Source: Escherichia coli (lineage in GTDB: Bacteria; Pseudomonadota; Gammaproteobacteria; Enterobacterales; Enterobacteriaceae). From it: DNA of 64,000 nt. This document shows positions 4,276 through 50,749 of this stretch, in pieces. Made by a program: the position numbers and the translations under genes. Within the stretch, counting starts at the first letter, position 1. Each line of letters starts with the position of its first letter. The notes under the pieces were generated by a model. The model did not search any database and was not told where the DNA came from. It worked only from the letters and a program-made list of their open reading frames with translations. The stretch lies in assembly GCF_011045215.1 (NCBI RefSeq), contig NZ_CP049201.1; one strand, 5' to 3'.

Positions 4276-5010
4276 ATGCCCAAACTCGATCTAAACGCCC
4301 TGAACGAACTGCCGAAGGTAGATCGCATTCTGGCGCTGGCAGAAACTAACGCCCAACTGGAAAAACTGGACGCTGAAGGCCGCGTAGCCTGGGCGCTGGA
4401 TAATCTGCCCGGTGAATATGTGCTTTCTTCCAGCTTCGGCATTCAGGCGGCGGTGAGCCTGCATCTGGTGAATCAGATTCGCCCGGATATTCCAGTGATC
4501 CTCACCGATACCGGTTACTTGTTCCCGGAAACCTACCGCTTTATTGACGAGTTAACGGACAAACTCAAGCTCAACCTGAAAGTGTACCGTGCTACCGAAA
4601 GCGCAGCCTGGCAGGAAGCACGCTACGGAAAACTGTGGGAGCAGGGCGTTGAAGGCATTGAAAAGTACAATGACATCAACAAAGTCGAACCGATGAACCG
4701 GGCGCTGAAAGAACTTAACGCGCAAACGTGGTTTGCTGGCCTGCGCCGTGAACAATCCGGCAGCCGCGCCAATTTACCGGTGCTGGCAATTCAGCGTGGC
4801 GTATTTAAAGTGCTGCCGATTATCGACTGGGATAACCGAACTATTTATCAGTACCTGCAAAAACATGGCCTGAAATATCACCCATTATGGGACGAAGGAT
4901 ATTTATCGGTGGGCGATACCCATACAACTCGTAAATGGGAACCCGGCATGGCGGAAGAAGAAACGCGTTTCTTTGGCTTAAAAAGGGAATGTGGGTTACA
5001 CGAAGGGTAA
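4276..5010 (+). CDS. cysH: Phosphoadenosine phosphosulfate (PAPS) reductase
   Basis: ORF 4123..5010 trimmed to the MPKLDLNAL start (244 aa); PAPS reductase family with C-terminal ECGLH motif; GAGG RBS upstream. Confidence 0.95.
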
Positions 5011-10515: not shown

Positions 10516-11571
10516 ATGACGACATTTATTCAGCTTCATTTGTTAACCGCTTACCCTGCAGCCAACCTTAACCGTGATGACACCGGAGCGCCGAAAACCG
10601 TGGTCCTGGGTGGAGCAACGCGACTGCGCGTTTCCTCGCAAAGTCTGAAACGTGCGTGGCGCACTTCTGCACTTTTTGAACAGGCACTGGCGGGCCATAT
10701 TGGTATTCGCAGTGGGCGTATTGCGCGTGAGGCGGCAACGATCCTGATTGAGAAAGGCATCGAAGAGAAAAAAGCCATCGAATGGGCGGCAAAAATTGCG
10801 GATTATCTTGGGAAAGCTAAAAACGACAAAAAACCAAAAGATCCGCTCACTAACGCCGAAACTGAACAATTAGTCCATATCAGCCCGGCAGAATTTGACG
10901 CCGTAAAAGCGCTGGCCCATCAACTGGCCGAAGAAAAGCGCGCGCCAAAAGAGGAAGATCTCGCTTTGTTACGTAAAGATCGCATGGCGGTAGATATCGC
11001 TATGTTTGGTCGTATGCTGGCGAATAAACCCGAATTTAATGTTGAAGCCGCCTGCCAGGTCGCGCATGCATTTGGTGTCAGTGAAACGATTGTCGAAGAT
11101 GATTTTTTCACCGCCGTTGATGATTTGCGCCAGGCTTCTGAAGATGCCGGTGCCGGGCATCTTGGTGAAACCGGATTCGGTTCTGCGCTGTTCTACACCT
11201 ATATCTGCATCGATAAAGATCTGCTGGTCGAAAACCTCGGCGGTGACGAAGCGTTAGCTAATCAGACCTTGCGCGCCTTTACGGAAGCCGCACTTAAAGT
11301 CTCCCCAACCGGCAAACAGAACAGCTTTGCCAGCCGTGCCTACGCCTCCTGGGCGCTGGCAGAAAAAGGGACTGAACAACCACGCTCTCTGGCGGCGGCT
11401 TTCTATGAACCCATTAATGGCACCCGGCAGTTAGATGTGGCGGTGCAGCGTATTACAACGCTTCGCGAAAATATGAATACGGTCTATGAACAGAAGACCG
11501 AATGCGCAAGCTTTGACGTGATGAACAAACAGGGAAGCATGAAGGACGTGCTGGACTTTATCTGCGCGTAA
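10516..11571 (+). CDS. casC: Cascade backbone subunit Cas7e
   Basis: 351 aa; Cas7e-like N-terminal region (LTAYPAANLNRDD...SSQSLKRAWR); third gene of the effector operon. Confidence 0.9.
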   Translation: MTTFIQLHLLTAYPAANLNRDDTGAPKTVVLGGATRLRVSSQSLKRAWRTSALFEQALAGHIGIRSGRIAREAATILIEKGIEEKKAIEWAAKIADYLGKAKNDKKPKDPLTNAETEQLVHISPAEFDAVKALAHQLAEEKRAPKEEDLALLRKDRMAVDIAMFGRMLANKPEFNVEAACQVAHAFGVSETIVEDDFFTAVDDLRQASEDAGAGHLGETGFGSALFYTYICIDKDLLVENLGGDEALANQTLRAFTEAALKVSPTGKQNSFASRAYASWALAEKGTEQPRSLAAAFYEPINGTRQLDVAVQRITTLRENMNTVYEQKTECASFDVMNKQGSMKDVLDFICA

Positions 11572-46588: not shown

Positions 46589-49479
<2,891 letters not shown>

Positions 49480-49564
49480 CGGATTTTATCCTGTTATCAG
49501 TAGGGTAGATGTAGTTGTTATCAGTCGACGTGACGGAAAAATGCCGATGCTGAAACGGAATTAA

Positions 49565-49653
49565 GAAACCGGTTTCACAAAATCATGAATAGTTGTCACC
49601 AAATAAGCAAGAGAGTTAATTGTTCATTTTTTATATTTGTGAAACCGGTCACC
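49565..49653. promoter_or_regulatory. ascG/ascFB divergent control region with two LacI/GalR-type operator palindromes
   Basis: gaaaccggtttc (49565-49576) and tgtgaaaccggtcacc (49638-49653), the second an imperfect copy. Confidence 0.6.
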
Positions 49654-49738
49654 TGAATATTTTTCCCGCCGATTGTGCAAGGACAATCGGCAAACGGTGC
49701 AGTACACTGCGTTGATTGCGTGTAAAGGGATGAAAATG

Positions 49739-50749
49739 ATGACGACGATGCTGGAAGTGGCGAAGCGCGCCGGGGTTTCAAAAGCGACCGTTTCCCGCGT
49801 GCTTTCAGGTAATGGCTACGTCAGCCAGGAGACTAAAGATCGCGTGTTTCAGGCGGTAGAAGAGAGCGGTTACCGTCCAAACTTGCTGGCGCGCAATCTG
49901 TCGGCGAAGAGTACTCAGACGCTGGGGCTGGTAGTGACCAACACGCTTTACCACGGCATTTATTTTAGTGAATTACTCTTTCATGCCGCGCGAATGGCGG
50001 AAGAGAAAGGGCGGCAGTTGCTATTGGCAGATGGTAAACACAGCGCAGAAGAAGAGCGCCAGGCGATTCAGTATCTGCTGGATCTGCGCTGCGACGCGAT
50101 CATGATTTACCCGCGTTTTTTAAGCGTGGATGAGATCGATGACATCATTGACGCGCACAGTCAGCCGATAATGGTGCTTAATCGCCGCCTGCGCAAAAAT
50201 AGCAGCCATAGCGTCTGGTGCGATCATAAACAGACCAGTTTTAACGCCGTGGCAGAGTTGATAAACGCCGGGCATCAGGAGATTGCTTTCCTTACCGGCT
50301 CGATGGATTCCCCCACCAGCGTTGAACGTCTTGCCGGGTATAAAGACGCGCTGGCGCAGCATGGTATTGCGCTCAATGAAAAACTTATCGCTAACGGTAA
50401 ATGGACGCCCGCCAGCGGGGCCGAAGGGGTAGAAATGTTGCTCGAACGTGGGGCTAAATTTAGCGCGTTAGTTGCCAGTAACGACGATATGGCGATAGGT
50501 GCGATGAAAGCGTTACACGAGCGCGGCGTAGCGGTGCCTGAGCAGGTGTCAGTTATCGGATTCGATGATATCGCAATTGCCCCCTACACCGTTCCGGCGC
50601 TCTCCAGCGTAAAAATTCCGGTGACTGAGATGATTCAGGAAATTATTGGACGGCTGATTTTTATGCTCGATGGGGGCGCTTACACACCGCCGAAAACCTT
50701 CAGCGGAAAACTGATCCGCCGCGACTCACTCATTGCTCTTTCGCGATAA
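49739..50749 (+). CDS. ascG: LacI-family repressor of the asc operon
   Basis: ORF (TTG-initiated in the track) trimmed to MTTMLEVAKRAGVSKATVSRVL (336 aa); N-terminal HTH. Confidence 0.93.
   Translation: MTTMLEVAKRAGVSKATVSRVLSGNGYVSQETKDRVFQAVEESGYRPNLLARNLSAKSTQTLGLVVTNTLYHGIYFSELLFHAARMAEEKGRQLLLADGKHSAEEERQAIQYLLDLRCDAIMIYPRFLSVDEIDDIIDAHSQPIMVLNRRLRKNSSHSVWCDHKQTSFNAVAELINAGHQEIAFLTGSMDSPTSVERLAGYKDALAQHGIALNEKLIANGKWTPASGAEGVEMLLERGAKFSALVASNDDMAIGAMKALHERGVAVPEQVSVIGFDDIAIAPYTVPALSSVKIPVTEMIQEIIGRLIFMLDGGAYTPPKTFSGKLIRRDSLIALSR

Follow-up and report, generated by a model that had tools for sequence, protein, structure and literature searches.

The closest described system is the ascFB control region of Escherichia coli K-12, with AscG operators and a CRP box; we take the description of these operators to be that of Ishida, Kori and Ishihama 2009 (J Bacteriol 191:6136). 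The region considered here is the same locus, with both sites (hereinafter sites A and B) base-identical and nothing functional that differs. For E. coli K-12, the two sites, the repressor, and the part played by CRP are thus already known, and because all of this is published and the same sequences recur here, the locus has little significance beyond annotation. What a comparison of 80 loci adds is that site A is the ancestral one of the two operators, and site B an ancestral CRP box that is AscG-like only in Escherichia and Kluyvera-like organisms, making this a small, clean example of the site of one regulator evolving within that of another. The overlaid site also offers a testable hypothesis as to why the silencing of asc in E. 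coli is so unusually tight. Among other systems, CytR-CRP at deoP2 is an instance of anti-activation and repressor-CRP competition at a catabolic promoter, and malT is a class I CRP promoter. The asc region is akin to CytR/deoP2 in having a sugar-specific LacI-family repressor acting at or beside a CRP site upstream of what is probably a weak CRP-dependent promoter. However, CytR binds cooperatively with CRP, whereas AscG and CRP would be expected to exclude each other at site B, given that an AscG half-site lies inside the CRP box. The IS-activated beta-glucoside operons (bgl, and asc itself via IS186 in ascG) are of the same operon family and share its crypticity, but the window, i.e., the whole 64,000-nucleotide stretch of E. 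coli DNA analyzed here, carries no IS element in ascG or the spacer. A more distant parallel is offered by the LacI-family regulator PtxS of Pseudomonas, whose operator, 5'-TGAAACCGGTTTCA-3', overlaps the start site and hinders RNA polymerase (PMC11678583). The PtxS operator and site A share the same 14-bp palindromic consensus and both lie over a start site (a predicted one at asc), which constitutes a likeness of sequence and mechanism rather than orthology; the PtxS system differs in its effector (2-ketogluconate), its target (kgu), and its repressor, and no overlapping CRP box has been described for it.

The asc spacer is a 259-bp segment of the E. coli chromosome (positions 49480-49738 of the window) lying between the divergent genes ascF on the minus strand and ascG on the plus strand, with the ascF start codon at complement 49477-49479 and the ascG ATG annotated at 49739 (an alternative ATG is found at 49736). 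By the RefSeq annotation of the matching regions of K-12 and E. coli C, ascF (48022..49479, minus strand) codes for a PTS EIIBC transporter for cellobiose, arbutin, and salicin; its product contains the Pfam PTS_EIIB and PTS_EIIC domains, is full length, and shows five amino-acid differences relative to K-12. Behind it lies ascB (46589..48013, minus strand), annotated in RefSeq as a family 1 6-phospho-beta-glucosidase (Pfam Glyco_hydro_1, E = 8e-132), which is likewise full length, with 11 substitutions relative to K-12. On the other side, ascG (49739..50749, plus strand), a LacI-family repressor according to the RefSeq annotation of the same matching regions, codes for an intact protein of 336 amino acids with an N-terminal LacI HTH domain (PF00356, E = 1.8e-21) plus Peripla_BP_3, so that it is a LacI-family gene that adjoins site A. 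The five substitutions separating this AscG from that of K-12 are all at variable positions. The possibility of an altered repressor arising from V195, AYT314-316, and L334 was considered and rejected, because these positions vary among the orthologs and the residues are common to E. coli C. In its gene order, hycI-ascB-ascF/ascG-hydN-hypF, the region agrees with K-12.

A 461-bp probe spanning the spacer has matches in 4698 of 5426 complete E. coli genomes, with all the matches listed being annotated as ascF/ascG, and the best of them coming from E. coli C (99.8%, as against 98.9% for K-12). Approximately 727 of the 5426 genomes (13%) have no megablast match to either the asc spacer or ascG; a cysH probe from the same window matches 5425 of the 5426. 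The ascG allele of the window is uncommon, with identity of at least 99% in only 18 records (the best at 99.0%) among the 5426 complete genomes. For the cross-genus analysis, the comparison set consisted of 80 loci encoding AscG orthologs of 66-99% identity, all 80 with a divergent ascF, from Escherichia, Citrobacter, Enterobacter, Klebsiella, Raoultella, Kluyvera, Leclercia, Lelliottia, Phytobacter, Pseudocitrobacter, Aeromonas, Dryocola, and Sodalis.

The first-pass annotation had reported a perfect 12-bp palindrome between the divergent asc genes and read it as an operator of the LacI/GalR family. The palindrome is indeed present as GAAACCGGTTTC at 49565-49576, the single exact copy within the 64-kb window, and is held within the 14-mer AGAAACCGGTTTCA (49564..49577), i.e., site A, which we take as the primary AscG operator. 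Read on the opposite strand, site A is TGAAACCGGTTTCT, which has been published as the "PascF" AscG-binding sequence (PMC8667592, Table S3), and AscG has been described as "a strong repressor" when the PascF sequence is placed at position +1 of a synthetic promoter (PMC8667592). Site A has a central CG and one mismatch to the palindromic AscG consensus, and its palindrome is retained in 80 of the 80 orthologous ascG-ascF spacers, from Escherichia to Aeromonas, with the prevalent versions being GGAAACCGGTTCCA (50 loci), GGAAACCGGTTTCA (14), and TGGAACCGGTTCCA (8), even as the sequence flanking it is barely alignable across these loci. The HTH region of AscG is nearly invariant among the 80 orthologs (mean identity of 91% over residues 1-60 versus 76% over the remainder), and a conserved operator would accordingly be expected. 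Within E. coli, a single common polymorphism is seen near site A, namely A/G at 49564, which lies outside the 12-bp core. The match to the published sequence, the neighboring LacI-family gene, and the conservation at every locus thus bear out the operator assignment. Binding of AscG to the identical K-12 sequence is known from the literature, and in the present strain site A is the predicted place of AscG binding and repression.

The palindrome taken by itself is not remarkable: a perfect 12-bp palindrome of any sequence arises in 7% of 5000 spacer shuffles, 18 of 247 window tiles of the spacer's size contain one, and mismatch-tolerant matches to the 12- or 14-mer are at chance level within the window. 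One might therefore hold that the palindromes arose by chance in an AT-rich spacer and have no regulatory role; however, site A, which is retained at 80 of 80 loci, exactly matches an AscG site that has been employed in experiments, while both the position and the half-sites of box B are conserved in the midst of largely unalignable flanks, such that this explanation is already refuted by cross-genus conservation and we give it practically no credence. Indeed, we regard conservation across species as the decisive evidence for both predicted sites. Other candidate AscG targets in the window (11166-11179 with two mismatches, 4960-4971, and others) were rejected, as they are located within ORFs and are no more frequent than chance would give. 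The 3' end of cysH (4958-4973) contains a perfect 16-bp palindrome, AAGAAACGCGTTTCTT, that resembles the AscG core but has a GCGC center; we regarded it as coincidental. On the ascF side of site A, 16-18 bp from its center and within the predicted ascF leader, there is also an orphan half-site of the AscG type, TGAAAC (49551-49556); it is exact in 43 of the 80 loci (chance about 0.006 per locus) and absent from Enterobacter, Lelliottia, Klebsiella, and Raoultella.

A scan of 49300-49900 for consensus promoters and terminators returned none at threshold, and the elements of the ascF promoter were taken instead from cross-genus conservation. On the minus strand these are a putative -35 element, TTGCTT (49605..49610), with its TTG shared by at least 95% of 81 aligned sequences, and, after a 17-bp spacer, a putative -10 element, CATGAT (49582..49587), situated directly upstream of site A; in this register 35 of the 80 loci have CATGAT and 21 have GATGAT. 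The start of ascF would thereby fall near 49575, inside site A, which would span roughly -1 to +13. The proposed hexamers match only 7 of 12 consensus positions, and such a weak promoter fits with dependence on an activator. As for its location, the distance between the centers of sites A and B is nearly fixed across the 80 loci (75 bp in 43, 74 bp in 32, 73 bp in 1, and 65 bp in 4), and in the four 65-bp loci the difference corresponds to the loss of 10 bp, i.e., one helical turn, from the segment separating the CRP box from the -35 element. Counting from the predicted start, the center of the CRP box at 49645.5 would lie near -70.5, and at about -60.5 in those four loci; a location of approximately 70 bp upstream of the start is a class I activator position. 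By contrast with the fixed spacing between the two sites, site A lies anywhere from 27 to 94 bp from the ascF ATG depending on the genus, suggesting that the CRP box, the promoter, and the operator form a constrained unit. We also considered the CRP box as serving the ascG promoter and rejected this, because, depending on the genus, anywhere between 55 and 98 bp separate the box from the conserved ascG -10 block; set against the fixed 74-75 bp to site A, this variation ties CRP to the ascF promoter. In the ascF leader, a perfect 10-nt direct repeat, TGTTATCAGT, is found shortly upstream of the start codon at 49492-49501 and 49516-49525, with its copies 24 bp apart; the proximal copy coincides in part with the GATAACAGGA ribosome-binding region of Enterobacter, and the duplication may be the source of the longer leader of Escherichia (91 bp, as opposed to 41 bp, between site A and the ATG).

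The other element of the pair, site B (TGTGAAACCGGTCACC, 49638..49653), had been taken in the first-pass annotation for a second AscG operator, an imperfect copy of the first, a proposal of which the location and the AscG-like core in Escherichia stand; across genera, though, the site is conserved as a CRP box only. The Escherichia sequence reads TGTGA-AACCGG-TCACC, matching TGTGA-N6-TCACA at 9 of the 10 core positions, and it is the TCACC found in place of TTTCA, a departure from the AscG palindrome, that yields this match. The CRP-core pattern is found twice in the 64-kb window against an expectation of 1.9, so the sequence match alone is at chance level, and the identification of the box derives from the match together with its conservation. 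Thus, in the equivalents of site B from the 77 non-Escherichia spacers, G2, T3, G4, A5, T12, and C13 are invariant, with G10 in 69 and A11 in 72 of the 77 loci, while the center is taken up by 35 different hexamers. This pattern fits both TGTGA-N6-TCACA and the extended CRP consensus, TGTGATCTAGATCACA. The inner flanks of the E. coli box (A6, G11) are less favorable than those of the orthologs.

The AscG-like 14-mer in the Escherichia site B is TGAAACCGGTCACC (49640-49653), with a left half-site that is perfect (7/7) and 3 of 14 mismatches to the AscG consensus that all fall in the right half. At the equivalent position, 69 of the 77 non-Escherichia loci show 6-9 of 14 mismatches, and an AscG-type palindrome is not conserved there in the orthologous spacers, with only 8 of the 77, all Kluyvera-like, at 3-4 mismatches. 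Conservation of the palindromes in orthologous regions therefore holds in full for site A (80/80) and not for site B, where the AscG-like core is limited to Escherichia (TGTGAAACCGGTCACC, three mismatches) and a weaker version in the eight Kluyvera-like loci (CGTGAAACCGATCACA, 3-4 mismatches). The spacer of the CRP box is AACCGG in Escherichia versus many unrelated spacers in other Enterobacteriaceae. Given the invariant CRP half-sites and the restriction of the AscG core to Escherichia and the Kluyvera-like loci, site B would have been a CRP site first, which then came to double as an AscG site; we therefore interpret it as a probable ancestral CRP activator site that in Escherichia additionally carries an AscG half-site. 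Within E. coli the 44-mer around site B is identical in 4536 of 4577 records. In the eight loci from Kluyvera and a related MAG, the CRP box is CGTGAAACCGATCACA or CGTGAAATCGATCACA and lies about 107 bp upstream of ascG; the likeness of its spacer to the AscG left half-site could be a convergence with Escherichia or a shared ancestral state.

Combining these observations, we propose that in the asc control region site A mediates repression by AscG, whereas site B serves as a CRP box and, in addition, as an AscG site, a reading to which we assign a probability of roughly 0.85. Under this proposal, a weak sigma-70 ascF promoter reading leftward would depend on cAMP-CRP bound at 49638-49653 in a class I geometry, and AscG bound at 49564-49577 would cover the start site and thereby block RNA polymerase. 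In Escherichia the AACCGG spacer of the box would supply the perfect left AscG half-site (TGAAACC-GG), by which a second AscG dimer could occupy the box and exclude CRP. The outcome would be a double repression, with promoter occlusion at site A coupled to anti-activation at site B through competition between AscG and CRP. Ishida et al. 2009 reportedly found that at ascFB a CRP box overlaps one of the AscG sites and that AscG interferes with the binding of both CRP and RNA polymerase. Further, ascF is among the known CRP targets recovered by genomic SELEX (PMC3105977), and two AscG binding sites at ascFB are reported in another study with reference to Ishida 2009 (PMC3505978).

That last report would also agree with two plain AscG operators through which two dimers repress, possibly with the DNA between them looped, site B being a degenerate copy that plays no part in CRP action. 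Members of the LacI/GalR family often use paired operators and looping, and sites A and B have in common a 14-nt inverted repeat without mismatches (49568-49581 and 49636-49649; ACCGGTTTCACAAA and TTTGTGAAACCGGT), which does exceed chance, being recovered in 0 of 5000 spacer shuffles and in only 1 of 247 tiles, namely the asc spacer tile itself. However, the 6-9 mismatches of most non-Escherichia equivalents alongside invariant CRP half-sites, as well as the status of ascF as a CRP target (PMC3105977), run counter to such an arrangement. The separation of 75-76 bp, moreover, amounts to about 7.2 helical turns, so that the two sites would not be on the same face of the DNA, and a LacI-AscG chimera displayed no looping-type behavior (PMC3505978); on both these grounds looping between sites A and B seems unlikely, and we consider the two-operator arrangement as a whole quite improbable. 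At the other extreme, site B might be a CRP site alone, with its likeness to the AscG operator being coincidental in Escherichia and AscG acting through site A only, as it presumably does in most genera. The retention of site A as the only AscG-type palindrome across genera and the 3 of 7 mismatches in the right half of site B speak for this, but the left half matches at all seven positions, the agreement with site A runs to 14 nt, the surrounding 44-mer is nearly fixed in E. coli, and published work places two AscG sites at ascFB (PMC3505978), leaving such a coincidence very improbable. We accordingly favor the reading of site B as a CRP box that doubles as an AscG site.

The overlay of the two sites may bear on the silence of the operon. 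We raise, as a speculative and rather unlikely though not negligible idea, that the conversion of the CRP-box spacer to an AscG half-site, specific to Escherichia, is part of the reason why asc is "cryptic" in E. coli. If true, AscG of Escherichia would both occlude the promoter and evict its activator, while in Citrobacter, Enterobacter, Klebsiella, and Aeromonas it would act only at the start-site operator, such that CRP would stay in place and induction would be easier; the AAACCGA spacer of the Kluyvera-like loci would then represent an independent or an intermediate case. The first-pass annotation had noted that asc is described as cryptic and that neither an IS element nor a promoter-up change signals its activation in this genome, both of which agree with the literature and with an intact, K-12-like locus. 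In the alignment with K-12, the spacer is of the same length (as it also is in E. coli C) and colinear, both sites are base-identical, and ascG, ascF, and ascB are full length. The spacer differs from that of K-12 by two substitutions, 49600 C/T and 49617 T/G, which fall outside both sites and the predicted hexamers; at 49617, K-12 alone has G among six aligned Escherichia sequences. Alignment with K-12 and E. coli C shows no IS element in ascG or the 259-bp spacer. Such insertions at the asc locus are rare in the population: an IS1 in the spacer is found in 1 of 4698 genomes (NZ_CM151383.1, strain 04A19CPO007), and an IS621 in ascG in one strain among the matches listed. The IS1 is approximately 765 bp in length with a target duplication within 49526-49536, i.e., between site A and the ascF ATG, and it cuts ascFB off from its native promoter, CRP box, and operators.

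On the ascG side of the spacer, a conserved block, GTGCAGTACACTGC (49697-49710), is present with at most two mismatches in 77 of the 80 loci, and in 67 of the 80 its -10 element begins 36-37 nt ahead of the ascG ATG (33-38 nt in 78 of the 80). With AGGACA 17 bp upstream of its TACACT, this block is probably the ascG promoter, comprising a putative -35 at 49680-49685 and a putative -10 at 49703-49708 on the plus strand (49680..49710 overall). The block contains a short inverted repeat, GCAGT-ac-ACTGC, and its conservation extends past the hexamer. A further inverted repeat with 9-bp arms, GCCGATTGT-gcaagg-ACAATCGGC, is observed at 49668-49691, between the CRP box and the putative ascG promoter, the -35 element of which it overlaps; it is restricted to Escherichia, and one of its arms is polymorphic at 49676.
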